From NCBI GenBank assembly GCA_947259495.1, contig CAMYLV010000005.1:55401-119400 (forward strand): DNA of 64,000 bases, in the 5' to 3' direction. Position numbers and translations under genes: made by a program. The notes under the pieces were generated by a model, which did not search any database, was not told where the DNA came from, and was given only the letters and a program-made list of their open reading frames with translations. Each line of letters starts with the position of its first letter. The stretch's first letter is position 1. Source of the stretch: an uncultured Desulfobacterales bacterium (lineage in GTDB: Bacteria; Desulfobacterota; Desulfobacteria; Desulfobacterales; JAHEIW01). Shown one piece after another: positions 13,580 to 60,557 of this stretch.

Positions 13580-13810
13580 TTATACCGCTTTTCATAATAA
13601 TGTTCCGAGTCACCGACCACCCGCAGAGCGGGTGGCTTGGATTTTTCCGCCACAGGCGGAAAAACAAACGGGCACGGCAGTGTCCTATTCGGTGCGGGTG
13701 AAACCGGGTGCAAAGAACCCGGTTAAAACACCCAATTACGGAATTGGGGCATACGTGGTTGTAGAAAAAAACGTTGGCATAACGGAACGCTTTTTTGACA
13801 ACCACTATAA
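13580..13810 (-). repeat. Dispersed ~104-bp hairpin repeat, copy A, interrupted by a 126-bp insertion
   Basis: Matches the other seven copies on both sides of 13609-13734; contains the exact 13-mer GGTTGTCAAAAAA on the minus strand. Confidence 0.9.
13609..13734 (+). mobile_element. Putative non-autonomous IS200/IS605-type (PATE-like) mini-element
   Basis: Absent from the sister copies of the host repeat, no target duplication. Hairpins CCACCCGC-AGA-GCGGGTGG, TTTTTCCGC-CACAG-GCGGAAAAA, GGGCAC-GGCA-GTGTCC and AACCGGGT-GCAAAGA-ACCCGGTT. Begins GTCA...GCTTG. Confidence 0.55.
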
Positions 13811-13959
13811 AACGGCCTGATTTATTCCGGCCCTCTGGCCGAAAGCTTTGCCCGCGACAGCCCGCCATCATCACTGTTGGGGCATACATAAGACAATTGA
13901 CCTATATTTACAATAGAAGCGAACTCAAAAATTGCGATATGGTGCTGGGCAGGATCGGG

Positions 13960-14454
13960 CTAAAGAGAAAAACTTCTTTTCCCTTTGTAGCCGGAATAGG
14001 GCAGCGTAACATATAAACCGTCTCCCATGTAGACCCCTAATCCCATGAAAATACCTTCCGGGTTGTAGATTTCGACTACATCTCCGTGAGTTCGGCCGGG
14101 ATTTACATATTCCGGATAGCAGGTTGACAACGGATTTAAATACATGCGGACTTTATGGCGCACCCGCCCGCGGGTCGAATCAGATTCGATCTCTTTGACC
14201 TCGTTTGCCCAATAATAAAATTTAGCATACAGAGCGCAGTGCGGCCATTTTTGGGCACAGGCATCGAAAAATTCCTGCAGCTTGACCGTCTGCCCGTCCA
14301 GAGTGGACAGATACGGTTTCTCGGGTAATTCTTTCAGACGCGCCACAATATCATCGATGCAGGCCTCCGGTGGACGTTCAGGTGCCGGTGCAAGCGTATG
14401 GCAGCCGGCAACCAGGACCCCCAGGAGAATACAAACGAGGCGCCGTGCTATCAT
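13960..14454 (-). CDS. Hypothetical lipoprotein
   Basis: MIARRLVCILLGVLVAGC lipobox at ATG 14454. Confidence 0.7.
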   Translation of the reverse strand: MIARRLVCILLGVLVAGCHTLAPAPERPPEACIDDIVARLKELPEKPYLSTLDGQTVKLQEFFDACAQKWPHCALYAKFYYWANEVKEIESDSTRGRVRHKVRMYLNPLSTCYPEYVNPGRTHGDVVEIYNPEGIFMGLGVYMGDGLYVTLPYSGYKGKRSFSL

Positions 14455-14695
14455 TCTATCCGTCCTTGCACAGGTTCTCGCTCGTGGTACAACAGGCGAC
14501 AAGATGATAAGATTTCACCTCCCTATCCGTTGACCTGGTTTTTTTGGGGCGGCCACCCGAGGTGACCGCCGACGGCTTTATCGATCGACATCTCGGCGGT
14601 GGCCGATCTTAACGACCCGGATGCTGCGTTCATCACCCTGGATGGAATAGACGATGCGATATCTACCCTGTGCCGGATGCGATATCGCGCTAACG

Positions 14696-15112
14696 TCAGG
14701 ATGATTGAGAACCAGGGGCCTGTTTCGGCTGACTTTTGATCAACCACTTGTCCGCCTGACTGATCATTTTGCCAAGCTGTCCTATTATTTGTTCATAAGC
14801 AGAGTTTAATTGCTCGCAGGTATCATCGTCAAGGTATTTACATTGTCGGGCAAATTCGATCCATACCTGCGTCTCGCAGGCCTGGCCTTCGGAATCGTTT
14901 AATTTGGCGATAAACGGGGTTTTAAAGCGTCTTTTGCGCCAGGCTCTACTGATATGCGAGCAAACCGACCGCGCCGCTTGCCGCATTTGATCGGTTAAAG
15001 CATAGTGCTCTTCAGGCGGAAATTTCGCGGTTAAATGAAAAATGTCCATGGCGGTATTCATGGCATTCTGAAAAACCCTTAAGTCTCTAAAACTTGTTAT
15101 TTTATCCTTCAT
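14696..15112 (-). CDS. Four-helix-bundle protein (IVS/S23-type, bAvd-like fold)
   Basis: SFRDLRVFQ, FPPEEHYALTDQMRQAARSV, ETQVWIEFARQCKYL; GGAGG SD. Confidence 0.9.
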   Translation of the reverse strand: MKDKITSFRDLRVFQNAMNTAMDIFHLTAKFPPEEHYALTDQMRQAARSVCSHISRAWRKRRFKTPFIAKLNDSEGQACETQVWIEFARQCKYLDDDTCEQLNSAYEQIIGQLGKMISQADKWLIKSQPKQAPGSQSS

Positions 15113-15159
15113 GTTTCAACCTCCCTTTCAAATGTGCGTGTGCCGATGTTGGGGGCAGG

Positions 15160-15188
15160 ATCAGCCGCCCGGTGCCCGGGCGGCTGAT
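15160..15188. other. GC-rich 12-bp stem-loop between comEA and the four-helix-bundle gene
   Basis: ATCAGCCGCCCG-GTGCC-CGGGCGGCTGAT; no U-tract. Confidence 0.55.
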
Positions 15189-15208
15189 GGCGCCCTGTCA
15201 ATGCACGC

Positions 15209-15517
15209 TTACTTTTTGGCCTGCCGCTTTTTGAGCTTTTGGACCGTAATCAACGCTTTGTTTTTTTCAAAGGTTTTCTGGCCGATACGCGGGACATTGA
15301 TTAAATCTTCCGGTTTTTGGAAGGGCCCGTTTTTTTCGCGATAGGCGATGATCCCGGCGGCATGACTTGAACCGATGCCCTTTAATTGCGTCAGCTGTTC
15401 AACTGTGGCCGTGTTGATGTCAATTTTTTCAACATCGCCGGCATAAGCGCCGGTCGCAACGATCAGGCTCATTAAAACAACAACCCATACGGCTACGATT
15501 CGTCTACGATTTTGCAT
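15209..15517 (-). CDS. comEA: ComEA-family helix-hairpin-helix DNA-binding protein
   Basis: Signal peptide; IDINTATVEQLTQLKGIG...IIAYREKNGPF...DLINVPRIGQKT. Confidence 0.92.
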   Translation of the reverse strand: MQNRRRIVAVWVVVLMSLIVATGAYAGDVEKIDINTATVEQLTQLKGIGSSHAAGIIAYREKNGPFQKPEDLINVPRIGQKTFEKNKALITVQKLKKRQAKK

Positions 15518-15807
15518 TTCTTCCTCCTTTCGATTGAGGGTTTATGAATCATTCCCATGCAACCCTGCATGGGATCGTTGAAAGCAAAGCGCAATATTTT
15601 TAAAAATATGTCAATAAGAACTTGCTATATCGCCAATAATCTGTTACCTAAATTTTGCATAAAAACTTATGAAAAGCATTTTACCTCTATTAATATGATA
15701 TAATCTATAATATAGTAAATTTTAATTGTCAACTTAAATTTGCATTAAAAGCAAAAATAATTTACCCATAGAACTTCGTTTGTTACCTGGACAGTCGGGA
15801 GTAAAAT

Positions 15808-16401
15808 ATGGCCAATGATGAAAAAACGAATAAAACAAATGATATGAAACTGTCATTGAGTGAAACAGAAGAGATCATCGGGCGGCTGAAAGAAGCGCTG
15901 GATGTCAAATCCGACGGACAACTGGCAAAATATTTAGGCATTACCCGGCAAAATATCGGTGCCGCCCGCAAACGGGACGACGTTCCCCCGGGATGGATCT
16001 ATAAGGTGGCGGAGCTCAGCGGATGTTCAATGGATTGGGTTCGTTTTGGACAGGGCCCGCAAAAACGTGTGACCTATGCTGCGGGAGAATCTCAAGATAT
16101 GGGTGAGATAGCCAGTCAGGAATCACCTTATCGGCTCCAGGTCAGCTGGAAGCCCCGGTTGGCGGATGAATTGCAATCCGACGCGGACACGGCCGGTTTC
16201 GGTGCGGCCGTTGAGATGCTGGCCAAAATCTACGGCTCCGGCGATCAGCTGCTGATCGGCGCTATCAATACCGATCTGCGCGCATTTTGCGAGGCCATTG
16301 ACCGCAAACAACGGGATCAGCACTCAACCAAAGAACTCATCAATCTGAAAAAGCGCCTGGCCACGATCGAAAAACAGCTGAAGCGGGACAAGCGCTCTTG
16401 A
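15808..16401 (+). CDS. Phage CI-like (XRE) HTH regulator lacking an S24 peptidase domain
   Basis: IIGRLKEALDVKSDGQLAKYLGITRQNI...SMDWVRFGQGP; helical C-terminus. Confidence 0.8.
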   Translation: MANDEKTNKTNDMKLSLSETEEIIGRLKEALDVKSDGQLAKYLGITRQNIGAARKRDDVPPGWIYKVAELSGCSMDWVRFGQGPQKRVTYAAGESQDMGEIASQESPYRLQVSWKPRLADELQSDADTAGFGAAVEMLAKIYGSGDQLLIGAINTDLRAFCEAIDRKQRDQHSTKELINLKKRLATIEKQLKRDKRS

Positions 16402-16442
16402 TTGCCGATTAATTAATGCGGAATGCTGCCCATTAGTTTTAT

Positions 16443-16546
16443 TTATAGGGGTTGTCAAAAAACGTTGCAGTATTCAAACGTTTTTTTCTACAACCCCTTA
16501 TGCCGCACTTCCGTATTCCGGAACATTATTATGGAAAGCAGTATAA
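16443..16546 (+). repeat. Dispersed ~104-bp hairpin repeat, copy B
   Basis: TTATAGGGGTTGTCAAAAAACGTT...AACGTTTTTTTCTACAACCCCTTATGCCGCACTTCCGTATTCCGGAACATTATTATGGAAAGCAGTATAA. Confidence 0.92.
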
Positions 16547-16675
16547 TCGAGGCACTGAAAAGGTTATCACCCTGCACAACAGGCACTGCGTAATCAAACG
16601 GATCAAGATTGCATGTTAGGGAAATCCGTAATAATCGGAGTGCCCTTTGTAACGGAAGCGTACTCAGATTTGCAT

Positions 16676-17356
16676 TTATTTTGTGGCTCGATATTCATAT
16701 TGCGACCGAAAGTCCATGGTATTGGCATAGACCAGTTTGGGAACCAGTTTCCCGTATTTTTCTTTGGGATCACTTACGCCGACACTAAACGGGCCGCCTT
16801 CCATCAGGCTGATTCTGGCCACCTGGGTTTTACCGGAAGTGGCACGGGTCCAGCAGGTGGCCCCGCTTTCAGTTTCCAAAATTCGGGTTTTGAGTGCTGC
16901 TTCAACATAGGCTCTGGCATTCAAAGACTTGGCAGCGGTATAAACATTAATTTTCGGCTTTATGTGAGAAACTTGCAGGTGCCCCAATATGATGGCATCC
17001 ACCTTATACTTTTGGCCGATTGACTGAATGGTTTCCGGATTGAGTTGGCTGTGTCCCAGGGAACGCAACAAGTGATCTGCATCCCCCAGTTCGAGGATCC
17101 GCGTACCCGGCTGCGCTGACTGGATGTTTTCAATGAAATTCTGGGTCACATAAGGCTTGAGCGTATCTTCAGCATTTGTCGAAAATTCAACCACGCCAAT
17201 CGAAGGAAAAGCTTTCAAATCAACCTTTGGGGGCACTATCACTTTTTCGGTATGCGCGCATGCCAGAAGCATTACCATTACGGCTGACAGTAAAAAGGTT
17301 AGACACAACAGCCCGGTTCTGATGTTTGCAGAACAGTCTGATAGGTTCGTTTTCAT
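16676..17356 (-). CDS. Hypothetical lipoprotein (possibly CsgG/HfaB-like fold)
   Basis: LLAC lipobox; IGVVEF and SIGQKYKVDAIILG pattern. Confidence 0.7.
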   Translation of the reverse strand: MKTNLSDCSANIRTGLLCLTFLLSAVMVMLLACAHTEKVIVPPKVDLKAFPSIGVVEFSTNAEDTLKPYVTQNFIENIQSAQPGTRILELGDADHLLRSLGHSQLNPETIQSIGQKYKVDAIILGHLQVSHIKPKINVYTAAKSLNARAYVEAALKTRILETESGATCWTRATSGKTQVARISLMEGGPFSVGVSDPKEKYGKLVPKLVYANTMDFRSQYEYRATK

Positions 17357-17515
17357 TGCACGCTCCTTATTCTTAATTATGGCATTATGCGATTGGAGAA
17401 ATCGGCCGCACTATAGCTTCTTGATTTAGCGGCTGTGATTTATATCGGTGCGGGATGGGAATTCTTGAGCAGAAGATTCAATGCATACTTCGTTGATTCG
17501 TCAAATGGTTAAAAG

Positions 17516-17588
17516 CAGGGCTGAGGACTCAGGACAGAGGAGCTTGGTGAGGACGCCAGGATTAAACTGCCACGGACACACACGGATT
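17516..17588. repeat. Short-period repeat block at the left edge of the AT-rich patch
   Basis: CAGGGCTGAGGACTCAGGACAGAGG and CCACGGACACACACGGAT. Confidence 0.5.
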
Positions 17589-17845
17589 TAAGCTTTTAAA
17601 TAAGATTTGCGCCTTACAGCTCTGCCCTGACCTATACTTGAATTGGCAGAATGGGTAGGTCAGTCAAAACTTTGAGTCACAATTGGATGTCACAATTTTT
17701 CAGAAGGTTCCCAAAGTTTGCAAATGTTGGAGACTGCGCATCAATTATGTCACAGGTGAAAGCCTGATGGCTTATTAAACAGGGGAGTTTCACCTATTAT
17801 TTTTAGGCAGTGGATGATTCGGGGAGAATTTAAGACTTGAAATCC

Positions 17846-17921
17846 CCTATAGATAAAGTTGGGGAGGCTCTGCGAGCTACACCCTAAGGGCTCGCTCGCC
17901 TCCCCAACATCTATCTATAGG
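17846..17921. repeat. 76-bp imperfect palindrome
   Basis: Arms CCTATAGATA/TATCTATAGG, GTTGGGGAGGC/GCCTCCCCAAC, GCGAGC/GCTCGC. Confidence 0.8.
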
Positions 17922-18173
17922 AAAGGTACCAGATATATTGAATCCGAGAACATAAGTTTTTTTAAGCTAAATAGCAGGTTTAGAAAAACAGCTTTGGTAA
18001 AAATAATACAAAAAATTAAATTTTGAGATCTAAAGTAATTTATAAATAATGCCGAGTTACGGTTTGTAGAATCAAATCACAAACTCGATTTGCGAAATGA
18101 TAAAAATTCTTTAGTAGTTTTCGTTGCAGCACCATAACTAATTGGATTTATTAGCTATAAAAAAATAGCGATC

Positions 18174-18716
18174 ATGTATAAAAGATCTAAATTTAAGCCA
18201 TGTGAAAATTGTCAAAAACCGGTCATTCCGGAAGATAAAAATTGTCCTTATTGTGGATTTAAGGTGAAAAAAGAGGTACTTCCAAAATTAATCATAGGTG
18301 TATTGATATTAGTTCTTTTCGGTAGTCTGGCCATTCCCTCGAAAAGCCATTTAGATAAGGAAATAAAAAAGATTGCGAATGCCCCGGTCGATACTGTTAA
18401 TATTCGAGAATTGGCAAAAATTTTAGGCAATAAACATGCAGATACTGAAATACTGAATAAGATTGGAAAAATAGAGGGTAAAATCGTCGAATTGCAGCTT
18501 CAGGTTTTTGTTTCTACCTATATGTCTGATTATCATAGAATCGTAACAATACCATCTGCCGGTATTCCTGGTACATTGCTGACACTCTATCCAAAAAATA
18601 AAAAAGAGTCCGAATACTTAAAAAATATAAAACCAGGGCAGACGTTAAAAGTAAAAGGAAAAATTGAAGGTATTTATAAAAAAAGACTTAAAATCAATCC
18701 TGCATTTATAATTTAA
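18174..18716 (+). CDS. Zinc-ribbon + TM + OB-fold-like protein
   Basis: CENC..CPYC, TM segment, C-terminal VKGKIEG pattern typical of tRNA_anti-like OB folds; AT-rich codons. Confidence 0.7.
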   Translation: MYKRSKFKPCENCQKPVIPEDKNCPYCGFKVKKEVLPKLIIGVLILVLFGSLAIPSKSHLDKEIKKIANAPVDTVNIRELAKILGNKHADTEILNKIGKIEGKIVELQLQVFVSTYMSDYHRIVTIPSAGIPGTLLTLYPKNKKESEYLKNIKPGQTLKVKGKIEGIYKKRLKINPAFII

Positions 18717-19246
18717 GTCCAACGCAAACTTCAAATTCTCACTTCATCTACATAATATTCTGCACCAATATCAGGGTTATCAATCATTCAAATACATTCC
18801 CTACGCTTCATAAAAAAAGATAATATGATGGCAATTTGGATATATTGAGATAATCGGTAAAGCCGCAAAATTACAGATATCGTAATCTGATATCACAGAT
18901 TTTTAGAGACGGCCAAATATACATAGATTTTGGAGATAACACAGGTTTTAGAAAAGCCAAAGGCTGCTCGGCTTGGGATTTGTTTACCGTAACTATAAAA
19001 ATTTGAATTTGAAAATGATGCATTTATAGTCCAGCAAACTCATTGGAGCCTGTACTACAATATCGTGCATACTCCTGTAAAACAAGTGGTGAGAAGGTAA
19101 GTGAATGTTATGTCTGCTTCGACGATAACGCTTTCAGGTTAGCGTACAGTTCTTGGTTTGTCTTAATGAAAGCGCGAATCGGAAATTAGATCATATAGCC
19201 ACCTGCACCAAGTCACTCTATCGGTAACAGCTTTTTTAGAGATTTG

Positions 19247-19807
19247 TTATTTTGATTTAAATAGCTTCGGATCCCGCATCGTCTTTAGGATTTCAATGCT
19301 ACTCTTATACCCCTTAGTAAGCCGACACAAATCTATCGCCATCCCGGCGATCTGGGCTACCGCGTGGACAAAATTCACATCTTCCAAGGTAAATTCCCAA
19401 GGTTGAGAGGTATAGACTCTGAGGGCTCCAATCACGTTATTGTGGACTGTAATCGGAACGGATAAAATAGAAGCAATGCCTTCCTTTTTGGCTTCATTGG
19501 GATACTGAAGCCTCGGATCATCCGAAACATCGTAAATCGCGACAGGACCTTCCTCAAGAGATTTGGTGATGGACTTTAGAGAACTGATTGGCCCTTTATT
19601 CAGATAATTCTGACTCAGTCCATACGAAGCAGCGATTTTCAGTTCATTTGTCTTACGGTTGATTAAAAACAGTGCACAGCCCTTTACATCCAGAGCGGTT
19701 TTGACGCTCTCTACCGTCAACAAAACAACCTCTTTCGGATCTCTTGTGGCAGAAATTGAGCCGGTAATTTTTATTAGCGTTTCATAATTAATGATTTGCT
19801 TTTTCAT
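19247..19807 (-). CDS. Stand-alone GAF-domain protein
   Basis: GCALFLI, ASYGLSQNYLNKGP, DPRLQYPNEAKKEGIASILSVPI, IGALRVY; AGGAG SD. Confidence 0.88.
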   Translation of the reverse strand: MKKQIINYETLIKITGSISATRDPKEVVLLTVESVKTALDVKGCALFLINRKTNELKIAASYGLSQNYLNKGPISSLKSITKSLEEGPVAIYDVSDDPRLQYPNEAKKEGIASILSVPITVHNNVIGALRVYTSQPWEFTLEDVNFVHAVAQIAGMAIDLCRLTKGYKSSIEILKTMRDPKLFKSK

Positions 19808-19943
19808 ATGTTTCTCCTTTCGTTTCAGAAACGGTGCCCTGTTTTTCCCGAATACTCAATGAAGGGGCGAACCCAGCCGTCATCCTATCAGTTCTATGGC
19901 GGCCAGGCAGAAAGCGAACACGAGCGGCCGGTGTTGCAAGAAT

Positions 19944-19983
19944 AAAAAAGCCCCTGAGGCGTAAGTGTTCTCTAAGGGACTTT
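19944..19983 (-). terminator. Intrinsic terminator upstream of the GAF gene
   Basis: Minus strand AAAGTCCCTTAGAG-loop-CTCAGGGGCTTTTTT. Confidence 0.65.
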
Positions 19984-20014
19984 AATTTGGTACCTTCTGG
20001 ATAGACTTCGTCAT
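19982..20014 (-). CDS. Putative 10-aa leader peptide MTKSIQKVPN
   Basis: GGAGA SD 5 nt before the ATG; stop overlaps the 5' arm of the terminator. Confidence 0.35.
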   Translation of the reverse strand: MTKSIQKVPN

Positions 20015-20379
20015 GGTGTTCTCCAGGAGGTTCACGAGTTGTAGGTTGAATGTGAAAGGTAGATCAGGGGCAGTTTACGGCCTCACGAGTTGGATTGTCA
20101 AGAGGAAACTGGTTGAAGGGTTAACCACAGCCACGACGGGGTATGCTGGAGCGGGAAGGGAAGTCAACAAGAATGCGATATCACAAGTTTTAACGGCTGT
20201 TCTAAAGTGCAGATTATTTGGAGTAATCGGCACAAAATAACAGCTTTAAATATTAAGTTTTTATAGCGGATGGCGCAGTTGCTTGGCGAAAAATTCGCAT
20301 TCAATATTTTCAGATTTCAAAAAGAAAAGATGAGGTTCTGATGGCTCCACCCTCACACTATTCGGCAATTTGAATCAGA

Positions 20380-20961
20380 TTACGGCATCTTCCCAAACTC
20401 AAACCACTGATGTGTATCAGCGATTAAGCTTTCATGATCGGCCCTCAGATGGTCATACATTCTTGCATTGTCAATAGCTATGCCTCCCATATCCGCCACT
20501 CCAGAAATCAGCTTGCATTCATCATCTGAAAAATTGCGCTGCTCTGAAGTGTATATTCTTAGCACGCCTACTATTTGGTCTTTTACTGTCATTGGAACAG
20601 ATAGCACTGAAGCAATGCCTTCCCTTTTGGCTTCATCTGGGTACTGGACCCTCGAATCATCTGACGTGTCACGGATTAGAACTATTTGTCCGTCTAATGT
20701 TTCTGCTATACTTTTATCGGCATCCAAAGGACCCTTTCTTAAATAGGCCTCGCTCAGGCCATAACTTGCACTGACATCTAATTTATTTCGGCTCTTATCC
20801 AAGAGAAAAATTGTGCAGGCTTTAACATTGATTAATTTTACAATATTTTCAGTAATCAATATTAAAACTTCTTTGAGATCCAAACTAGAATTAATTACTT
20901 TACAAACATCAATAAATAATTTGAAATATCGCAATTCTTTATTTTGCATACGATCCTCCAT
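20380..20961 (-). CDS. Stand-alone GAF-domain protein (paralog of 19247-19807)
   Basis: ASYGLSEAYLRKGP, DSRVQYPDEAKREGIASVLSVPM, VGVLRIY. Confidence 0.88.
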   Translation of the reverse strand: MEDRMQNKELRYFKLFIDVCKVINSSLDLKEVLILITENIVKLINVKACTIFLLDKSRNKLDVSASYGLSEAYLRKGPLDADKSIAETLDGQIVLIRDTSDDSRVQYPDEAKREGIASVLSVPMTVKDQIVGVLRIYTSEQRNFSDDECKLISGVADMGGIAIDNARMYDHLRADHESLIADTHQWFEFGKMP

Positions 20962-21106
20962 TCCCCCAATAAAAAAGCCAAATCACCCAAAAAAAGGCAA
21001 CTCGGCTATTTAAAGAAGACAAACCGCATCCTAACCCCCTCATTAGAGAGCTTTTGTCAAGTATTCCCATCTCCCCACAAGATGGGTTTAGCTTTGTGGC
21101 TTACTC

Positions 21107-21412
21107 TTATTTTTTAAATGGATACGTCCCCAAAATGTATTCATCATATTCGGTTGGAGATTCCAGGAAACTTTCCAACTTCGCCTCGTTCGCTATTCTT
21201 TCTTTATTTTCTTTCCAGGCTAGCCAATTTTCTATGCTCTGCCACGTGGAGATCACGAGTAGATGGTGGGGATCTTGATAGCTCAACAGAGTCTCGCCTG
21301 TGATATAGCCCTTCTGGTTCATAGCATTGGAACGATGCTTATTTAGCAAGGCAAAAACGTCTTTCGCCTTACCCTCTTTTATGTGTCTCTTAATCATAAC
21401 CTTTAACGCCAC
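21107..21412 (-). CDS. Antibiotic-biosynthesis-monooxygenase (ABM) family protein
   Basis: KGYITGETL, LVISTWQSIENWLAWKE; GGAGG SD. Confidence 0.85.
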   Translation of the reverse strand: MALKVMIKRHIKEGKAKDVFALLNKHRSNAMNQKGYITGETLLSYQDPHHLLVISTWQSIENWLAWKENKERIANEAKLESFLESPTEYDEYILGTYPFKK

Positions 21413-21549
21413 AGTGACCTCCTTTCTTTCCGATTTTTATTAGAGAGCGCTTCATATTTAGACGGTTGAAAAAGGCTGGTCCATTTCTGGCCCTGCCTTC
21501 AGTATCTACCATATAGGGGATAAATAAAATTCAAACTAGGGAATATTTA

Positions 21550-21864
21550 TTAAAAGCCCCGTGTGCTCGCCGTTTCTTCTGCAGCGAGGTGCTCTTCCCA
21601 TCTTTTGCCCCACAGATCTGGAACCGTTTCTTCAACTGCTACTATAGATTCATAAGAAATATGAAGATCCATAAAAATCGATTTTAATGTGCGCTCATCA
21701 GGAGACAACCATTCACAATAACGCAGCCCTTTTTCTTTATTAAAACAAGTCCGCACCCATGTACACTTTTCAACATTTGCGAGTTTTGCCCAGTTTTCTT
21801 CCACCTTTTCCCATGAAATATTAGGATCATTGTGGACAACCATGTACTTTAACAATTTGGCCAT
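21550..21864 (-). CDS. DUF4242-like small protein
   Basis: KYMVVH, CTWVRT, RYCEWLSPD pattern. Confidence 0.7.
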   Translation of the reverse strand: MAKLLKYMVVHNDPNISWEKVEENWAKLANVEKCTWVRTCFNKEKGLRYCEWLSPDERTLKSIFMDLHISYESIVAVEETVPDLWGKRWEEHLAAEETASTRGF

Positions 21865-22134
21865 GATAAACCCCCTTCAATTAAAATTTTAGTAGATTAT
21901 TTTAATATCTTATCGTGTCATAAACAATCATATTGCCAACTGGCAGGAAGAATACCGCGATAAGAAAGAACTGCGAATACAAAACAAGCATAGAGGCGTC
22001 CGACAAAACAGAAACATTCTGTCAGGAGCCAGGTAGGCACAATTTGAGAGGTTGCTCCATTTAATCTTTTCCCGAAGTTTAGGTTAAAGTTTAAGGAAAA
22101 CCAGAATCTGTTTCAGCGGGAGAATTGCTGGCAA

Positions 22135-22554
22135 TTAATAGGTTGAGGCACGCATATAGTTACAATAATCGGGTTCATTTTTATCAATTTCAGCGGGAAA
22201 TTTATCCGACTTGCAAACAAATTCAAGTTTATCTCCGCCTTTGTTTACCCTTGCAAGTTTGTACTTGGTTCCGGAGATAGGATTTTGCATCTTGATTTGA
22301 TACCAGATATTTTCTTCAGAATCTTTCCACTTCTTAATTACTTGAAACGTACCACGTTGGAGTGCTTCAGCTGATGTTTTCGTACCATAAGTCACAAATG
22401 TTCCATCAAATGCAAATATTAGTTTTTGTGGTGGATCACCTGATACATATTTTGTATTGACCCAAGTGCAGCAAATCTCATCAGATTCAGCAAAGGTCTT
22501 TCCTGCAGAAAATACTAAAGAAAGGCATAAGGCGATAATAAATAATGCTCTCAT
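22135..22554 (-). CDS. Hypothetical exported protein
   Basis: Signal peptide; 139-aa AT-rich ORF with SD. Confidence 0.75.
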   Translation of the reverse strand: MRALFIIALCLSLVFSAGKTFAESDEICCTWVNTKYVSGDPPQKLIFAFDGTFVTYGTKTSAEALQRGTFQVIKKWKDSEENIWYQIKMQNPISGTKYKLARVNKGGDKLEFVCKSDKFPAEIDKNEPDYCNYMRASTY

Positions 22555-23260
22555 AATTATTCCCCTTTCATTTAATTGATTAAAAATAGGGATATTTGAT
22601 GCAAATTTAAATCATCATATATGTCTAACAATACTCGGTCTTAGGAATCCATCTCATCTATTTTATGCCTCCAATGGGCATTGGCCCTTTGGAGGCTTTT
22701 AAATCGGCATCTTCTGCAAACCCTTCAGCATGGCTTTCTCTACGAAAGTTAAGGGTTAAAAGTGACTGTTTTTTATGGGCTAACAGTAGGAAATTTTGGA
22801 TCAAGATGTCGTTCAAATCAGGATGAGGTTCTGAATGAGACTTATAGTAGGAAAGAGGTGGAGCTTAGCATTTCGCTTCTGGATAGCAAGAAATGACCAG
22901 ATAAAAATATTTCTTACTCAAAATAAATCCATTTCAAAAATTGTCAATAAAATGAATAGATTATTGCTACATTGTGGTAATTGTAAAAACGGGTGTATGA
23001 GGATGCCTAAGTGTTTTTTTCTTGCATATAACACAACTCTATCTAAAGTGCATGTATGAGAATACATGCATTTTGCCATTTTTACAGATATAAAACGAAT
23101 ATCACAGATTTTTCAAGATTAAAAAAGTGCTAATTTGTTGGAGTTATGTGAAATTGGAAAGAGGTATATTTAGAGGTATATTTAAGGTCAATTGCATCCC
23201 CAATAATCTCCCTAAGTATACCCCTTCTCATCGGTTATCAAATTTTTTTCTACTTTCTTT

Positions 23261-23431
23261 TTAATAATAAAGTCCGGTATCATAAACAGCTTCCCACTCA
23301 CCAGTTAGGTCATAGATCACTTCACCACTCGGTAATTTTACAGTATTTGGCATCCCGTCCCTCAGTGGATTATCCATTTGTGCCTGCACGTTAGAAAAAA
23401 CAAAACCGATAATTAAAATTACGATGATCCT
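23261..23431 (-). pseudogene. Fragment of an exported-protein gene
   Basis: Reads *RIIVILIIGFVFSNVQAQMDNPLRDGMPNTVKLPSGEVIYDLTGEWEAVYDTGLYY*: a signal-peptide-like segment with no start codon and an early stop. Confidence 0.4.
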
Positions 23432-23531
23432 TCAACGACAAAATAACCAAAAAGACTTGACCTCTCTGTGAACTCTAAGGGCTCTGTTAGATAGAAAATC
23501 TAACGCTCGCTGCACTCGTTCTTGGTGGTTA

Positions 23532-24029
23532 TCATTTGCTTTTCGGTTGCGGCGCCTTGATCCGGTTATGGTATAGACCGGAGGCGGAATCGGGAATTTC
23601 AATTGCGTCAACGGCTTTTTTATAAAAATCCGTGTCCTTTACGGCACCGACAACCGCGTAGCCGTATCCCTTGTGTTTCATATCCAGCAAACAGGCGTTT
23701 ATCAATGCCTTGCCGGTCCCTTTGTTGCGATGTGATTTGGCAATACCGATGGGGCCGAAAAATCCCAATGCCGTGGCATCGTAGCAGGCAAAACCGATTA
23801 CCTTTGCGTCTTTGACGGCCACAAAGCAAGTGCGGGGTTGATTGGACAGGGCCACATCGACTTCGGCGGCCCAGCCGGCACCAAAATGATCGGCCACCCA
23901 GGCGATGATTGCGTGTTTCTCGGGCCCGATCGGTTTGCGAAGCGTGATGCCGAGCGCTTTTTGTTCCGCCAAAAAGGACACCTGTGTCTCGAGCTCATAT
24001 AATTTGATCAGCATATCCGCCATCGTCAT
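23532..24029 (-). CDS. GNAT acetyltransferase
   Basis: FGPIGIAKSHRNKGTGKALI (AcCoA motif A), YGYAVVG, FYKK. Confidence 0.88.
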   Translation of the reverse strand: MTMADMLIKLYELETQVSFLAEQKALGITLRKPIGPEKHAIIAWVADHFGAGWAAEVDVALSNQPRTCFVAVKDAKVIGFACYDATALGFFGPIGIAKSHRNKGTGKALINACLLDMKHKGYGYAVVGAVKDTDFYKKAVDAIEIPDSASGLYHNRIKAPQPKSK

Positions 24030-24287
24030 CCCTCCATCTTCAACCCGTCATATTACCAGAAGCGTTAAAAGTATTTTTCACTATTTTATCCGGTTTGTCA
24101 AAATCAGGCCGGCAAATCCAGGTTCGAAAATACCATTTTAATAATGATTGAGTATACTTAAGCCAATAATCGGAAAAAAATGGGAGCCGCGCGAAACTTT
24201 TTCATTACCGCAGTGTTTAACCCAGGTAAAGTCGAGGCCCGCCATATGAAAAATACACTAGCAAATATAAAAACGGAGGCTAAAAGC

Positions 24288-25169
24288 ATGAGAAAAAAAC
24301 TGTTAACGGCATTAACCGGGGTGACACTGTGTCTGGCTTTTGCATCAAACCCCAACCTTATTCTGGCTGAAGACGACGGCGCAGATTTACAGCCGGGAGT
24401 CTCTTTGCGGCAACGGGTCGACACCAATGGTGATGGCACCATCGATGCGGATGAAAAAGCGGCTTTCCGGAAACACTATTTAAAACGCTTTGATCGCAAT
24501 AATGACGGCAAACTTGATCGAAATGAAAGACGGCATGCACGCCGGCGGTTCGATCGCGCCGAAGATCGCTGGGACCGCCGGGAAGATAAATTCGACCGCC
24601 GCGAAGATCGCTGGGATCGTCGGGAAGACCGCTGGGACCGGCGCGAGGACGTGTGGGACCATCGTGAAGATCATCGGGATCGCCGGGAAGACGTGCGTGA
24701 CCGCCGGGAAGATGTCTGGGATCGCCGCGAAGACATTCGGGACCGCAAAGATGATCAATTAAAGGCCAATCGGCTCGGTAATTTAGAAGAGCGTCTGGCC
24801 AACACTGATGACCCGAAAGAAAAGGCAAGGCTTGAAAGACGCATCAACCATTTAAACAAGAATATTCGCAGAGATAAAGCCGAGGATCGCTGGGATCGTC
24901 GGGAGGATAAATACGATCGTCGCGAAGACCGCTGGGATAGCCGTGAAGATCGCTGGGATCGGCGCGAGGACGTGCGGGACCACCGTGAAGATCGACGGGA
25001 TCGCCGGGAAGATGTACGCGACCGCCGGGAAGATCGTCGGGACCGCAGAGAGGATTTCCGTGATCGCAGAGAAAATCGCCGGGACCGTAAAGAGGATGTC
25101 CGCGAATATCATAAAGATCGGCGGCAACACAGAAGGCATGCAACCCGCTCCGGGGGAGCAGGGAGCTAG
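24288..25169 (+). CDS. Secreted EF-hand protein with two blocks of D-R-R-E-D-x-x heptad repeats
   Basis: GGAGG SD before ATG 24288; signal peptide; DTNGDGTIDADE and DRNNDGKLDRNE; 10 + 11 heptads. Confidence 0.85.
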   Translation: MRKKLLTALTGVTLCLAFASNPNLILAEDDGADLQPGVSLRQRVDTNGDGTIDADEKAAFRKHYLKRFDRNNDGKLDRNERRHARRRFDRAEDRWDRREDKFDRREDRWDRREDRWDRREDVWDHREDHRDRREDVRDRREDVWDRREDIRDRKDDQLKANRLGNLEERLANTDDPKEKARLERRINHLNKNIRRDKAEDRWDRREDKYDRREDRWDSREDRWDRREDVRDHREDRRDRREDVRDRREDRRDRREDFRDRRENRRDRKEDVREYHKDRRQHRRHATRSGGAGS

Positions 25170-33514: not shown

Positions 33515-33619
33515 TTATAGGGGTTGTCAAAAAATCGTTCCGGCATTCAAACATTTTTATTTACAATCCCTTGTGCCGCACTTCCGTCTTCCGGAACATT
33601 ATTATGGAAAACGGTATAA
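33515..33619 (+). repeat. Dispersed ~104-bp hairpin repeat, copy C
   Basis: TTATAGGGGTTGTCAAAAAATCGTTCCGG...GCCGCACTTCCGTCTTCCGGAACATTATTATGGAAAACGGTATAA. Confidence 0.9.
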
Positions 33620-35361: not shown

Positions 35362-35497
35362 TTAGTTAATATCCGTCGGTTGAATTAAATAAACACTAGC
35401 CAAGCTCATAAACTAATCCATGATAAATTCAAATCAACCGGGAAAGGGTCAAATGCTCAAAGGAAATTTGTTAGGGTTCGGGTATATTTGACCAGAT

Positions 35498-35569
35498 ATG
35501 GAATTGCGGCACAAGTGGTTGTAGGAAAAAACGCTCGAATAACGGATCGTTTTTTGACAACCACTATAA
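35498..35569 (-). repeat. Dispersed repeat copy D (partial; 3' third missing)
   Basis: ATGGAATTGCGGCACAAGTGGTTGTAGGAAAAAACG...CGTTTTTTGACAACCACTATAA. Confidence 0.85.
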
Positions 35570-52008: not shown

Positions 52009-53181
52009 TCATAGATTTCTTTTGGGCAGCATCAGAATAAACGGAATCGCGGTCAGCCCCATTATGGCGCTCACAAAATAGGTGGCGCGCAGGCCGATCA
52101 AGTCCCCGATTAAACCTACCAATACGACGATTGCCGAACGCGCCATGAACGATGCCATCATGAAAAATCCATTGGCGGCAGACGGGCTGCTTTTGGCGTG
52201 TTCCTGCACAAGTGCCAGCATAACCGGGGTTGTCGACAGCAAGGTAAATCCGATAACCAGTAAGGTCAAGAAACGAACCCACCCGCCAACCCAGGCGAAT
52301 ATGAGTAAACTTAAAGGAGCGCCCAGCAAAGAAATCAGCAAAATTCGGCGGCGGCCAAAACGATCGCTGAGGAACCCGGCCGCAAACACACCGCCGACAC
52401 CGCTGATTTCAAAAAGCGTGAGGGCGGCGCCGGCCAGCCAAAGATCACCAGTTTCCAATTTAATGAAGGTTGGCAAAAAAGCCGTTATGGACGCATGCAT
52501 AAATCCCCGCGCCAGAAGTATTGCCGTCAAAGGCATGAGAATGAATCGCAATTCGCGCCAGGTTTGCAGAACGGATAATTTGCGGTTGTGATTTACGGTT
52601 ATCGGTACCTCCCGAAAGTTGAAATACAACCAGGCCGAAGCCGCCAGACCGAAGATCATAATGGGATAGAAGCCTTCGAGCCCATAAAGAGAAACCATCC
52701 CCACCGCAACCAGGGGTCCGACCGCTCTGGCAAGCTCACCTCCGGTCATGTAGAAACTCATTCCACGGCCTTTTTTTGAGCCGGCCAAACGCGATATCAT
52801 CACCGGGGAAGGGACGTGAAAAAGCGAAACGCTGATGCCCGTTATAAATAATAATATTAATAAAATACCATAGCTGGGGGCCGTCCCGATCAGGCTCATC
52901 GGAACAGCAGTCAGGGCAGGCGCAAGAATGATAAAGTAGCGAACGCTGATTCTGTCAGCCAAAATGCCGATATATGGATTCATGAGTGCGGGAATCTGCA
53001 TGACCGAAGAAAGAAACCCGGCCTGTGTCAAAGACATGGACAGTTTTTCGATCAGAAGGGGTAGAAGCGGCGACAGAAAACTGGAATAGATATCGTGAAT
53101 AAAATGGCAAAGCGAAAGCACAACGATACGGCCGGTTTTAAAGTCGACCGATTCGCGATCATGTGATGGCTTGCGGGTCAT
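52009..53181 (-). CDS. MFS transporter (Fsr-like)
   Basis: HFIHDIYSSFLSPLLP, GILADR, GFLSDRFGRR. Start at ATG 53181; the longer ORF start lies inside a repeat. Confidence 0.92.
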   Translation of the reverse strand: MTRKPSHDRESVDFKTGRIVVLSLCHFIHDIYSSFLSPLLPLLIEKLSMSLTQAGFLSSVMQIPALMNPYIGILADRISVRYFIILAPALTAVPMSLIGTAPSYGILLILLFITGISVSLFHVPSPVMISRLAGSKKGRGMSFYMTGGELARAVGPLVAVGMVSLYGLEGFYPIMIFGLAASAWLYFNFREVPITVNHNRKLSVLQTWRELRFILMPLTAILLARGFMHASITAFLPTFIKLETGDLWLAGAALTLFEISGVGGVFAAGFLSDRFGRRRILLISLLGAPLSLLIFAWVGGWVRFLTLLVIGFTLLSTTPVMLALVQEHAKSSPSAANGFFMMASFMARSAIVVLVGLIGDLIGLRATYFVSAIMGLTAIPFILMLPKRNL

Positions 53182-53185: not shown

Positions 53186-53288
53186 TTACACCGCTTGTCA
53201 TAATAATGTTCCAAAAAAAGGATGGCGGCATAAGTGTTGTAGCAAAAAAACGTCCCGCAACCGGAACGTTTTTTTGACAACCACTATA
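53186..53288 (-). repeat. Dispersed ~104-bp hairpin repeat, copy E
   Basis: TTACACCGCTTGTCATAATAATGTTCC...GCGGCATAAGTGTTGTAGCAAAAAAACG...CGTTTTTTTGACAACCACTATA; ends 4 bp before the MFS ATG. Confidence 0.88.
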
Positions 53289-53469
53289 TGTGTCGCTGAC
53301 GGCTGATGATGATTTTTGGACGCATGGCCTTTTCCCCCGAAAACGCTAATGAATCTTAATTTAACCGGAATGTCAATCCCCTTGCTTTTAGTTTCCCAGA
53401 TCTTATCTTAGGATTCGTTCATACGGGCTGCACGGCCCTTCGATATATTTTACAAAAGGAGATTTAACC

Positions 53470-53670: not shown

Positions 53671-53814
53671 AACTGATTGCAGAACTCTCATCTCTTGCCC
53701 GAGGGCTTTGTTAAAATTCGGTTCAAAATACTCGCGTACTATCGTGTACGCTCCGTTTTTGAATCGAATTTCGTCTTGCCCTCGAACAAGGTTTAAAAGC
53801 TCTGCAATCAGTTT
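53670..53814. repeat. 145-bp long palindromic element (RPE/MITE-like)
   Basis: Terminal IR AAACTGATTGCAGA/TCTGCAATCAGTTT; inner arms GAGGGC/GCCCTC and AAATTCGGTTCAAAA/TTTTGAATCGAATTT; apical CGTAC/GTACG. Confidence 0.85.
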
Positions 53815-53961
53815 AATTGGCCATAAAATAAGCACCTTTTCAGCCTCGCGCCGGTTGAGCACCCTAATTTATGTCTAAATAGATGTGAAATCCCGCCAGC
53901 AGGCGGGATCCCTGAACCAAAACCTCAGTATTTAGAAACGCGTTTAGCTTTTTAAATAAGA

Positions 53962-54024
53962 CCGTTTTTGAATCGAATTTCGCCTTGCCCTCGAACAAGA
54001 TCTAAAAGCTCTGCAATCAGTTTA
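53962..54024. repeat. Right-half copy of the 53670-53814 element
   Basis: CCGTTTTTGAATCGAATTTCGCCTTGCCCTCGAACAAGATCTAAAAGCTCTGCAATCAGTTTA, near-identical to 53753-53815. Confidence 0.9.
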
Positions 54025-55052: not shown

Positions 55053-55053
55053 C

Positions 55054-55626
55054 TCATTCTCCTTGCACCCAAGAAAGCACCAGATCGATTTGCGGGTTGG
55101 ATTCAGGCGATAATCGGTCCTGCGTCGTTGTATTTTGCCTGAGTTGCTGCAGCAGCTGAATAGCTTTTCGACCGGTGGCATATCCATGTCGGGACAGATA
55201 ACAACCGACAACCGTACCGGTGCGGCCGACCCCTCCCAGACAATGGACATAAACGGGTTTACGGGCTTCAATTTTTTGATCTACCCGGTCTAAAATTCGC
55301 GCCATATCGATGCGGGTGGGAATCCCCATATCTTTTATGGGGATACGATCGAAGGTAACCTCACACCCCAGTTCTCGGGCAATCGCTCGCGTCTGGTCTT
55401 CGTAGGGAACGATAGGTTTGTCGTACCAGCGCATCTCGTCGGTCTGCATCAGGCTGATAAAATGGCGGATACCGCACTTCAGCAGCGCACTTAATTTTAG
55501 GTGGCCATCCCGGCCGAGCGCCGCTCCCGGATAATAACCGGCCATGAGCCGATCCGGTACGACCCAGTAAGCCTGATCAAACGGCACCTTTTTTTTTAAA
55601 TCGACCTTCAAATATTGGGGGGTCAT
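55054..55626 (-). CDS. Dual-specificity/protein-tyrosine phosphatase family protein
   Basis: HCLGGVGRTG (CX5R), PIKDMGIP. Start set at ATG 55626; the longer ORF extends into a repeat. Confidence 0.88.
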   Translation of the reverse strand: MTPQYLKVDLKKKVPFDQAYWVVPDRLMAGYYPGAALGRDGHLKLSALLKCGIRHFISLMQTDEMRWYDKPIVPYEDQTRAIARELGCEVTFDRIPIKDMGIPTRIDMARILDRVDQKIEARKPVYVHCLGGVGRTGTVVGCYLSRHGYATGRKAIQLLQQLRQNTTTQDRLSPESNPQIDLVLSWVQGE

Positions 55627-55688: not shown

Positions 55689-55795
55689 TTATACCGTTTT
55701 CCATAATAATGTTCCGGAATAAGAAAGTGTGGCCTAAGCGGTTGTAGAAAAAAGCGTTTGAATACCGGAACGTTTTTTTTTGACAACCCCTATAA
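55689..55795 (-). repeat. Dispersed ~104-bp hairpin repeat, copy F
   Basis: TTATACCGTTTTCCATAATAATGTTCCGGAATA...GGTTGTAGAAAAAAGCGTTTGAATACCGGAACGTTTTTTTTTGACAACCCCTATAA. Confidence 0.92.
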
Positions 55796-55909: not shown

Positions 55910-56013
55910 TTATACCGCTTTTCATATTAATACTCAAAATGGTGGAATTGCGGCATAAGGGGTTGTAGAAAAAACGTTTTGATATCGTAGCGTTTTTTTG
56001 ACAACCACTACAA
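55910..56013 (-). repeat. Dispersed ~104-bp hairpin repeat, copy G
   Basis: TTATACCGCTTTTCATATTAAT...GCGGCATAAGGGGTTGTAGAAAAAACGTT...CGTTTTTTTGACAACCACTACAA. Confidence 0.88.
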
Positions 56014-57939: not shown

Positions 57940-58845
57940 ATGATGAAAACACGGGTCATGCGTTTATATATTCCAGGGTATCATCTTTTTGTAGCCTCGC
58001 TAAACAAATTTGTTAAGGATGACTGTGTTACGCTGTCTTTATCGATATCCTTTGTTTTTCTGCTTTCAATCATTCCGTTCACCACCCTCAGCATTCTGAT
58101 TTTTGATTTCGTTAAAGGATTTTTCATAACCAATGCGGCCTGGGCCAACAATATTTCGGAGGTTCTGGCAGATGAAATCAACCATATCATACCCTTCGTA
58201 TCGAAAAATTGGCTTAAGTCCCATGTTATTAATCCGGATGCCTACAGGTCCTTCAAGGCTATCAATTTTTTAATGCTGCCGATCATCAGCGGTCTTTTTT
58301 TCAAATCGCTTGAAACGTCCTACCGCAAAATATTCCAGCTGCCGGCGCGTCATTTGCTTTTTGGCCAGGCATTTTATGTTATTATCAGCGTTTTCGCCGG
58401 CCTGCTTTTTTTTATGTCCAACTTCATCTGGATTATACTGTCAACGGTGGGGTCGCACATTTTAATCACGATAAACAATACACCCTATGTCAATCAGGTC
58501 TATAATCTGGCCATGCCCGTTTTGACTTCCCACCGGCTCAGTCTGCTATCCGCAGTGGTTCTGATTGTCTTTTATCTGGTTACCATCAAACTGTTTTTGA
58601 ATACGAAAATACGGTTTCGGCACCGTCTGGTGTCCGCAATTGTTTTCTGCTTGCTGTGGCTCATTGCCCGTCAACTTTTTAGCCTGTACATCAGCCATAT
58701 CACCGAATTCAGCGTTTTATATGGATCCTTGAGTTCCGTTATCCTTATTTTAATGTGGATTTTTTATTCATCACTGGCATTGCTATTTTCTGTCGAAATT
58801 CTTCACAGCATGCATTCCGGGCATTATCAATACCGGCAGTGGTAG
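57940..58845 (+). CDS. YihY/BrkB-family membrane protein
   Basis: KDDCVTLSLSISFVFLLSIIPF, YGSLSSVILILMWIFYS. Confidence 0.88.
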   Translation: MMKTRVMRLYIPGYHLFVASLNKFVKDDCVTLSLSISFVFLLSIIPFTTLSILIFDFVKGFFITNAAWANNISEVLADEINHIIPFVSKNWLKSHVINPDAYRSFKAINFLMLPIISGLFFKSLETSYRKIFQLPARHLLFGQAFYVIISVFAGLLFFMSNFIWIILSTVGSHILITINNTPYVNQVYNLAMPVLTSHRLSLLSAVVLIVFYLVTIKLFLNTKIRFRHRLVSAIVFCLLWLIARQLFSLYISHITEFSVLYGSLSSVILILMWIFYSSLALLFSVEILHSMHSGHYQYRQW

Positions 58846-58856
58846 CTGTGAAATCC

Positions 58857-58921
58857 CACGCAAAGACAAAAAAGAAAACCCTATGTATAAATCCTCACGC
58901 AAGGACGCAAAGACGCTAAGA
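58857..58921. repeat. 8-nt periodic repeat block after the yihY-family stop
   Basis: CACGCAAAGA ... CGCAAGGA CGCAAAGA CGCTAAGA. Confidence 0.6.
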
Positions 58922-59082
58922 GCCTGCTTCATTTCAATTTAAACCACATGGTTGCTTCTTGGATAATTCTGACTTTCTTATCCTTAATCACTCGAATTTA
59001 GGGAAAATATTGACATACAGGTCCGCGCAGTTTACAAGATAGACAACCGCTGTGGAACAAATCTCTGAGAGAGGACTTTTGC

Positions 59083-60450
59083 ATGACGCTACTGTTGCGT
59101 AACGCTTTTTGGGCGCTGTGCCTGTTCATTCTGGTTGGCTGTGCCTCCCACGGTATGCCGCGTTGGAGACATTTTCAAGGCGATTTACCCGGCCAGGGAT
59201 ACCTGTCGGTGGAAAGCGGGTTTGCTTTATCTTCAGCCTGGACATCCGGCCCCTATAGCATTACGAGCTCCTCTCCGGTCATTGGCATTGATGCCGAAGG
59301 CCGGGAGGTGATCTATTTCGGCACGGTGAACGGTGAACTGGTGGCCATCAATTCAGAGGATGGCAATGAACGCTGGCGTCGATCTTTTGCTGCCGAATCT
59401 AAATCGGCTGCTATTATATCAGCACCTGCGGTTTCCAGAAATGGCGACATTTACATTATTACCAATCACCGGCATGCAGACGGTCGAATCAGAAGCATTC
59501 TCCACAAGGTTGATGAATTCAGCAGGATCCGCTGGTCATATGCCATTGCGGATGACGGTTTTACTTCCGGCGCTCCTAAAATCTTGAAATGGGGCGACGA
59601 CACGCTTGTATTTGTTTATGTGACGGTCTTTGTTGACGGAGATCCCCAGGGAGCACTTCTGGCTTTGCGCGACAACGGCAAAACAGTTAAGCTGCTCGAT
59701 CGCAAAGCTCTGGGGCGCTGTCAATGGGACAGTGCCGAGTTGCAAGCTCGCAAGGAGGATGTGTTTAATTCAATTTCAGCGTTATGGGATTTGACTTCCG
59801 TATTTTCTTCTGAAATCACAGAGGGCGGAAATCAACTTCCGGATGTATTTGTCGATCCCACAGTGGCCGTATTTGCCGGCCGAAAATTACCGCTGATTGC
59901 GATCGCAGACAATCTTTGCAGCATTGGTGCCTTTGAATGGGATGAAGACTTATCTGTTGTCTGGCAGATATTTCACCCTTTCGAAAAACATTCCTCCACA
60001 GCCCTGTTGCCCAACGGCTTGATGGTTTTTGGACGGCAGAACGGCACCGTGCTGGCCCATGACGTGGAAACCGGCAAAAAATTATGGTCGCATGATGCCG
60101 GCCAACCGGTTTTTGCGACTCCGGCGGCAGCCCCCGGATCGTATCTTTTCCTTGTCGCAAAGGATCATATTGAAGTGCTGGATCAACGGGATGGTGCCCT
60201 CGTTTATGATGGGGAGTCGCCGCGACAGTCTAAATTGCCGGGCCAAACCCACGCTTCACCGGCTGTTACCGAAAATTGTGTGTATGTATCGACTATCGCC
60301 ATGCTGACCTTCAGCTACGATCTAGCGACCCGCAGCCAGGATACGAATTTTCGTGGAAACGGTCTGGCATCCACTGCCCTAAGCAATAACGGCGCGATTT
60401 ATGCCGTTGCCGCTGACGGAACCATCCACAAATACCCGGGTCCCAAATAG
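59083..60450 (+). CDS. PQQ-binding-like beta-propeller lipoprotein
   Basis: Lipobox LVGC; GELVAINSEDGNERW, GTVLAHDVETGKKLWSH, SSPVI/ASPAV repeats. Confidence 0.85.
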   Translation: MTLLLRNAFWALCLFILVGCASHGMPRWRHFQGDLPGQGYLSVESGFALSSAWTSGPYSITSSSPVIGIDAEGREVIYFGTVNGELVAINSEDGNERWRRSFAAESKSAAIISAPAVSRNGDIYIITNHRHADGRIRSILHKVDEFSRIRWSYAIADDGFTSGAPKILKWGDDTLVFVYVTVFVDGDPQGALLALRDNGKTVKLLDRKALGRCQWDSAELQARKEDVFNSISALWDLTSVFSSEITEGGNQLPDVFVDPTVAVFAGRKLPLIAIADNLCSIGAFEWDEDLSVVWQIFHPFEKHSSTALLPNGLMVFGRQNGTVLAHDVETGKKLWSHDAGQPVFATPAAAPGSYLFLVAKDHIEVLDQRDGALVYDGESPRQSKLPGQTHASPAVTENCVYVSTIAMLTFSYDLATRSQDTNFRGNGLASTALSNNGAIYAVAADGTIHKYPGPK

Positions 60451-60454
60451 GGCC

Positions 60455-60557
60455 TGTAGTGGTTGTCAAAAAAACGTTGCGGTATTCAAACGGTTTTTTC
60501 TACAACCACGTATGCCGCACTTCCGTATTTTGGAACGTTATTATGGAAAGCGGTGAA
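60455..60557 (+). repeat. Dispersed ~104-bp hairpin repeat, copy H
   Basis: TGTAGTGGTTGTCAAAAAAACGTTGCGGTATTCAAACGGTTTTTTCTACAACCACGTATGCCGCACTTCCGTATTTTGGAACGTTATTATGGAAAGCGGTGAAA; 4 bp after the stop. Confidence 0.92.

Follow-up and report, generated by a model that had tools for sequence, protein, structure and literature searches.

Several families of short, abundant intergenic repeats have been described in bacteria. The RUP element of Streptococcus pneumoniae is 107 bp long, has terminal inverted repeats (TIRs) like those of the insertion sequence (IS) IS630-Spn1, and uses TA as its target (PMC2229807). The mobiliser of the Correia elements of Neisseria (CREE or NEMIS) is undetermined (PMC2649163). 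REP elements, copied by RAYT proteins (Y1 HUH tyrosine transposases), are extragenic, abundant, hairpin-forming and, when doubled as REPINs, ~100 bp long. A comparable repeat of ~104 bp is present in eight copies in a 64-kb window (positions 55,401 to 119,400 of contig CAMYLV010000005.1) of an uncultured Desulfobacterales bacterium, a marine sulfate-reducer. The host genome of this window (G000) is a 97%-complete metagenome-assembled genome (MAG) of 4.44 Mb in 69 contigs. It is probable, at roughly 0.85, that the repeats form a MITE (miniature inverted-repeat transposable element) family derived from an insertion sequence of the IS630 family. The evidence consists of the number of copies, the nature of their ends and TA flanks, the preferred target, sites that are empty in related genomes, the similarity of each end to IS630-family elements, and internally deleted intermediates in relatives. 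RUP, together with IS630-Spn1, is the closest precedent.

All eight copies listed in a first-pass annotation of the window were recovered where it had placed them, by a repeat finder, by direct reading and by a profile search; the profile search found no ninth copy in the window. Repeat finding and direct reading agree that the copies are colinear, and the exact 13-mer GGTTGTCAAAAAA is present in all eight at the annotated positions, compared to 0.18 matches expected by chance. Across the genome, 562 profile hits correspond to 360 non-overlapping loci, with a summed length of 30.3 kb (0.68% of the genome). Full-length copies occupy 216 of the 360 loci. The remainder include truncated copies, and about 25 loci are long forms and about 14 are nested composites. 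The 219 full-length profile hits that were analysed are all intergenic, apart from 5 at contig edges that could not be classified. No open reading frame (ORF) is conserved across copies, and the ORFs that overlap them are spurious. In pairwise comparison, the copies are on average 81% identical. The nearest neighbour of most lies at 90-96% identity, and that of 17 at 98% or above; the population is therefore not very young.

The core of the element is ~98 bp, TAGKGG...GCGGTA (5'-TAGKGGTTGTC...GGAAAGCGGTA-3'), and the consensus with its flanks reads t-T-TA-[TAGKGGTTGTCAAAAAAACGTTCCGG ... CCGGAACATTATTATGGAAAGCGGTA]-TA-A-a. As read from the consensus, the TIRs are imperfect and span 26 bp, with 18/26 positions identical between TAGTGGTTGTCAAAAAAACGTTCCGG and the reverse-complemented 3' end, TACCGCTTTCCATAATAATGTTCCGG. 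The left TIR and an internal inverted copy of it form hairpin 1 (nt 4-56), with 20 pairs and one bulge, and nt 57-103 can form the weaker hairpin 2. The 5' hairpin proposed in the first-pass annotation has a folding energy of -36.9 kcal/mol as RNA and -26.3 kcal/mol as DNA, much more stable than shuffled sequences in both cases (z = -6.75 and -7.55, respectively), and its arms are paired at 92-98% over the 216 copies. The flanking pair that had appeared to covary in the window (GTGG/CCAC versus GGGG/CCCC) does so genome-wide: model pair 7:55 is T-A in 114 copies, G-C in 72 and otherwise in 30 (n=216). This pair has the highest mutual information among all column pairs (0.60 versus no more than 0.38 for nearer markers). 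It is the sole covarying pair, and it follows the sub-family markers more tightly than nearer markers do. No compensation was found in hairpin 2, where many pairs are broken across copies.

A candidate parent was found in G117, a genome that carries the repeat and encodes an intact transposase of 341 amino acids. The protein scores 216.6 bits against NF033545 (IS630 family transposase; cut-off 100) and contains DDE_3 and helix-turn-helix domains. Its stop codon lies within the right end of the element, TATCGGAACGTTATTTTGACAAATACTATA, which agrees at 26/30 positions with the reverse-complemented 5' end of the MITE, TACCGGAACGTTTTTTTGACAACCACTATA. The alignment score of 40 was not reached in any of 2000 dinucleotide shuffles (0/2000; maximum 31), and the similarity extends for ~45 nt. 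Within the genus of the host, eight right ends read ...TATCGGAACGTTATTATGACAAACGCTC (ending ...CGCTC) followed by TA, with 24/30 positions identical to the MITE. Two left ends read TA followed by TAGCGGTTGTCATAAGTATGTTCCG, which agrees with the 5' TIR of the MITE at 22/27 positions and with its reverse-complemented 3' TIR at 21/27. These alignments place TA outside the element on both sides, and TA is therefore the target duplication. With the G117 protein as query, transposase fragments were found in 10/22 genomes of the genus at 47-87% amino-acid identity (most at 60-87%). Many lie at contig ends, as expected because a multi-copy IS breaks assemblies. Internally deleted transposase copies also occur in the genus, with amino acids 1-67 joined to 257-340 in one and 1-143 joined to 306-341 in another. 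Given that both MITE ends match IS ends and that relatives harbor deleted intermediates, the MITE is best understood as the right end of the IS joined to its left end, with the middle gone. The IS630 genes of G016, G280, G316 and G034 were rejected as parents; they belong to a different sub-type and have unrelated ends.

The insertion sites provide further evidence. TA is present on both sides in 155/211 copies, on the left in 189/211 and on the right in 167/211, and most departures from TA/TA look like slippage loss of one of the two units in TATA, judging from the flanking letters. The rebuilt target is T64 T74 TA A88 A58 (%), compared to 32/37/37/32 at background intergenic TA sites; the preference is palindromic (TT-TA-AA), and 33/155 sites are exactly TTTAAA. 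In the nested composites, a full copy lies inside the hairpin-1 loop of a host copy, at TT-CA-AA. One independent nested case has flanks TA/AA, one base further along, and some loci carry arrays of the first 33 nt of the element. The composites can be read in two ways, as a founder composite spreading as a unit or as conversion towards the family consensus. Such sites, together with the two subterminal hairpins and a left TA that is somewhat better kept than the right, are also what might be cited for a palindrome-associated element of the IS200/IS605 type, which would move as single-stranded DNA, with insertion on the 3' side of a TTTA-like target, no duplication and a subterminal hairpin at each end; the composites in fact fit "no duplication" better than they fit TA duplication. 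However, copies show no replication-strand bias (64 versus 83, p = 0.14) in a genome where GC skew does tell the strands of genes apart (1321 versus 873), the bases preferred around TA are symmetric, most of the missing TAs fit slippage, and the register of the IS630 ends leaves TA outside the element on both sides. Movement of the IS200/IS605 type is thus very improbable, and was rejected on strand neutrality, target symmetry and IS630-end register.

Comparison with relatives supports insertion at TA. Genomes of the genus are syntenic with the host, and their genes are 69-87% identical in DNA. At copy E, eight relatives read GCGACG-TATCA-CTTCATG where the host reads GCGACA-CA-TA-[element]-TA-A-CTTCATG, and both flanks align. 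At copy F, seven relatives read GTGCTT-TA-AC where the host reads GTGCTT-TA-[element]-TA-AC. The empty sites of copies E and F thus show a single TA at base level, and copy G is missing from the same seven relatives as copy F. For copies A, B, C, D and H, element-free joined flanks align over the junction in one to four relatives; around A, D and H the intergenic sequence has diverged too far in relatives for a base-level junction, and absence is what the alignments show. Every window copy is absent from at least one relative, and thus all eight are recent, lineage-specific insertions. An empty site can also be found within the host genome, where one copy lies in a member of another repeat family of 140 bp whose other members are empty there. 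The MITE part of the first-pass annotation is therefore borne out: ~360 loci, TIRs, TA duplication, empty sites and a parent IS630-family element with matching ends were all found.

The 140-bp repeat is itself MITE-like. It has ends TGAAAATTAATGAGATAAAATGA...TCTCATTAATTTTCA and ~20 copies, two of which contain an insertion of the element studied here; examples outside the window are C46:8427-8554, C42:46342-46468 and C5:126493-126619.

The first-pass annotation had also considered a REP-like origin. A REP- or REPIN-like element would be copied by a RAYT that recognizes the hairpin through its GTAG arm. The reverse strand of the hairpin does contain GTAG, the element is extragenic and very abundant, and genes with a Y1_Tnp domain (frames of ~320-350 amino acids) are common, with three in the host, 0-12 in relatives and at least one in 21/22 genomes. 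However, none of the three host genes is flanked by the repeat (0/3), and the hairpin motif is absent from all 16 Y1 loci fetched from relatives (0/16). The TA flanks and palindromic target are typical of DDE transposases, and an IS630-family IS has homologues of both ends. The absence of replication-strand bias also speaks against the REP-like claim. Copying by a RAYT is therefore largely refuted and hardly credible: RAYT-type genes are present but unconnected to the repeat, and the gene whose element shares the ends of the repeat is an IS630-family transposase, found in relatives and not in the host. What the element has in common with REP/REPIN-RAYT systems is its intergenic location, abundance, hairpins and approximate length; it differs in lacking a RAYT association and in having a TA duplication and the ends of a DDE-transposase IS. 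The host Y1_Tnp genes, whose N-terminal domain is of the IS200/RAYT type, are at C14:53258-54229, C26:7938-8726 and C3:48861-49868.

In terms of the parent IS, the first 45-50 nt of the MITE are the inverted right end, comprising the right inverted repeat (IRR) and the last transposase codons, and the final ~27 nt are the inverted left end (IRL). The internal inverted copy of the left TIR folds the 5' half into the 20-bp hairpin. In the proposed mechanism, an IS630-type DDE transposase, supplied in trans, would bind both ends, cut the element out and paste it into TA, preferably TT-TA-AA, duplicating the TA. We infer this cut-and-paste chemistry because it is established for IS630/Tc1-mariner elements, and the identity of the transposase that mobilised these copies is likewise inferred. 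The ~360 loci now constitute an orphaned population that is decaying slowly. One uncultured lineage provides the whole decay series from an intact IS through internally deleted copies and a 98-bp MITE to an orphaned MITE population.

Several observations weigh against derivation from an IS630-family element. The left end of the G117 element is degenerate and has no significant similarity to the MITE. Identity between the known IS ends and those of the MITE is only ~80%, so that a closer variant, missing from the assemblies, may have been the true mobiliser. The two hairpins are atypical of IS630-derived MITEs, and the inner arm of hairpin 1, which makes the foldback, is retained as well as the TIR. 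In the nested composites the left flank is TA but the right flank is CA, which is not a perfect duplication. The evidence for mobilisation is presence or absence between species. Finally, the host genome contains no DDE_3/IS630 gene, nor a fragment of one, by domain (PF13358), by protein search or by tblastn at E <= 1, and the IS-specific end sequence was not found in it. A search of the host genome for an autonomous element, with the 5' and 3' ends 0.15-8 kb apart, returned long forms, nested composites and palindrome shadows only. Since no transposase is present in a 97%-complete assembly, the family is orphaned in this genome. MITEs often outlast their IS, so the missing transposase makes current activity less likely but does not bear on whether the family was derived from such an element.

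RUP resembles the proposed IS630-derived MITE most closely. Both are non-coding (~107 bp for RUP), have more than 100 intergenic copies, carry IS630-like TIRs and insert at TA, and the same origin and inferred mechanism have been proposed for RUP. The two occur in different phyla, and the likeness drawn here is one of description. Unlike RUP, which coexists with its IS, the MITE occurs here without a transposase; its left end also folds back internally over 20 bp, and its copies are approximately three times as numerous. Insertion into IS elements is reported for RUP, whereas the MITE recurrently targets its own hairpin loop.

Of the 21 further genomes in the genus, 20 carry the repeat. When the class was sampled evenly, it was detected in 9/301 genomes and 7/127 genera, and copies from other families share 81-92% identity with the host-genome consensus. 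This patchy distribution, and cross-family identity of 81-92% compared to coding identity of 69-87% within the genus, suggest horizontal spread of the repeat. A search of a plasmid collection gave no match, and no description of MITEs in Desulfobacterales was found in the literature. With ~360 intergenic loci per genome in the genus, and occurrence in at least six other Desulfobacterales families, the repeats can be masked as one MITE family.

The first-pass annotation had compared the start of the repeat with the ends of Correia elements, and this comparison holds in part. The terminus TATAGTGG-TT--CAAAAA matches a published Correia variant, tatagtggattaacaaaaaccggtacgg, at 16/19 positions (PMC5039591), although the match is short and ~0.5% of shuffles equal it. 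Like Correia elements, the repeat has a ~105-bp and a longer size class, TIRs of ~26 bp, hundreds of intergenic copies and a TA, occasionally CA, target. However, the 26-bp Correia repeat is not present at both ends; the match is confined to 19 terminal nt at a single end, with no significant similarity beyond them, and the other end is unlike. The near-perfect TIRs of Correia elements fold from end to end, but in the MITE each end pairs with an internal copy. Correia elements have a documented IHF site, promoters and RNase III cleavage and no known transposase, whereas a parent of the IS630 family has been identified for the MITE. The MITE is not a member of the Correia family, and the resemblance is a lead. 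Because of the shared terminus, the TA and occasional CA targets and the 105-bp size class, it is conceivable, though doubtful, that the IS630 lineage found here, with ends TA/TAG(Y)GGTTGTCA..GTTCCG (the slash marking the element boundary), is of the kind that once mobilised the Correia elements. If so, Correia elements would be orphaned IS630-derived MITEs of a related lineage, like the family in the present genome. The evidence for this lead is thin.

The possibility of a regulatory function, which is compatible with a MITE origin, requires separate consideration. The family as a whole might have been exapted as an RNA hairpin, an outward promoter or both, acting as a 5'-UTR or in the manner of a terminator. 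Hairpin 1 has high stability and well-paired arms, one of its pairs switches between T-A and G-C, and the 3' end together with the target yields TATAA(A/T). Correia elements supply promoters and RNase III sites (PMC2649163, PMC10969869). A sigma-70 consensus scan of copies E-H flagged copy G, at its 3' end (TTGAGT-17-TATAAT), but the other 3/4 scanned copies gave no promoter-like hit. The co-orientation with adjacent genes noticed in the first-pass annotation exists in the window but disappears genome-wide, with 69 copies between tandem genes oriented like these genes and 59 against them (p = 0.43). Relatives lack all eight window copies at the orthologous sites, the sole covarying pair tracks sub-family markers, and pairs of hairpin 2 are often broken without compensation. 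In Rfam, the window as a whole had no hit at the gathering score, and copies F and G had none even at E <= 1; no catalogued family there matches the repeat. An exapted 5'-UTR or promoter module is therefore improbable at the level of the family. We see no evidence that the family as a whole has a regulatory role; individual copies may matter. The family is most probably ordinary selfish DNA and not a shared gene-control module, and any effects on neighbouring genes would be copy-by-copy accidents. In annotation, copies need not be taken for leaders, terminators or small RNAs.

Table 1. Copies of the repeat in the 64-kb window (window coordinates; G numbers denote relatives)
Copy	Position	Strand	Form	Flanks and ends	Gene context	Relatives
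A	13580..13810	-	231-bp long form		upstream of class-V aminotransferase gene	absent at orthologous site in 4 relatives
B	16443..16546	+	full length	TA flanks 16444-16445 / 16544-16545; core 16446-16543		orthologous intergenic region of G016 aligns without the element
C	33515..33619	+	full length			absent in G014
D	35492..35569	-	3'-truncated, model 2-79			absent in G011, G016, G014
E	53186..53288	-	sub-family with loop CCGGTTGCGGGACG		4 nt before ATG of major facilitator superfamily (MFS) transporter gene	clean empty site in 8 relatives
F	55689..55795	-	full length		upstream of phosphatase/murB genes	empty site in 7 relatives
G	55910..56013	-	full length	flanks TG / TA		absent in 7 relatives
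H	60455..60557	+	full length	3' end variant GCGGTG-AA		absent in G006

One insertion that may matter locally is copy E, which splits the conserved leader ORF of the MFS transporter gene. Its 4-nt distance from the transporter ATG agrees with the first-pass annotation, as does the start of copy H 4 nt past the stop of a PQQ/BamB-like beta-propeller gene, where the genes are convergent. Copy E is inserted at codon 13 of a 15-codon upstream ORF (window 53289-53345, minus strand) that is conserved in eight relatives, in frame, as M-x-Q/P-K-x-T-x-N-x-K/R-R-R/H-I/F-T-S/A-stop. The TGA of this ORF overlaps the transporter ATG (ATGA), and the transporter gene ends at 52009. The ORF looks like a leader peptide. 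In the host genome it now ends at the TAG of the element, and an ATG within the 3' end of copy E is in frame with the last leader codons (ATG ACA AGC GGT GTA ACT TCA TGA).

Other copies differ in structure and setting. The long form of copy A consists of a 5' part (model 2-85), a GC-rich insert of ~125 bp with three hairpins, and a 3' part (model 69-105). This insert (window 13617-13725 in copy A) recurs in ~25-30 loci, almost only inside long forms, and has no resemblance to IS630 ends; its hairpins are AACCGGGT/ACCCGGTT, TTTTTCCGCC/GGCGGAAAAA and CCACCCGC/GCGGGTGG. The TIRs of copy B lie at 16446-16471 (left) and 16518-16543 (right). In copy D, model positions 2-79 correspond to 35492-35568. 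Copy C sits between divergent genes, which encode a SpoIIE/MASE10 phosphatase (minus strand) and a 183-amino-acid ORF (plus strand). The MurB encoded in the window is 76% identical to that of a public MAG labelled "Desulfobacterales bacterium".

Three further features of the window lie outside the repeat family. A low-GC stretch at 16000-24000 (0.40-0.42 compared to ~0.50 elsewhere) starts beside copy B and a gene resembling a phage CI repressor (15808-16401), and may be an island. Two blocks of 21-bp tandem repeats, with a 7-codon period, occupy 24516-25140 inside a 329-amino-acid ORF (24180-25169). Finally, two direct repeats of 63 nt (53753-53815 and 53962-54024), 95% identical and 209 nt apart, are located in a genus-conserved region between copy E and murB.

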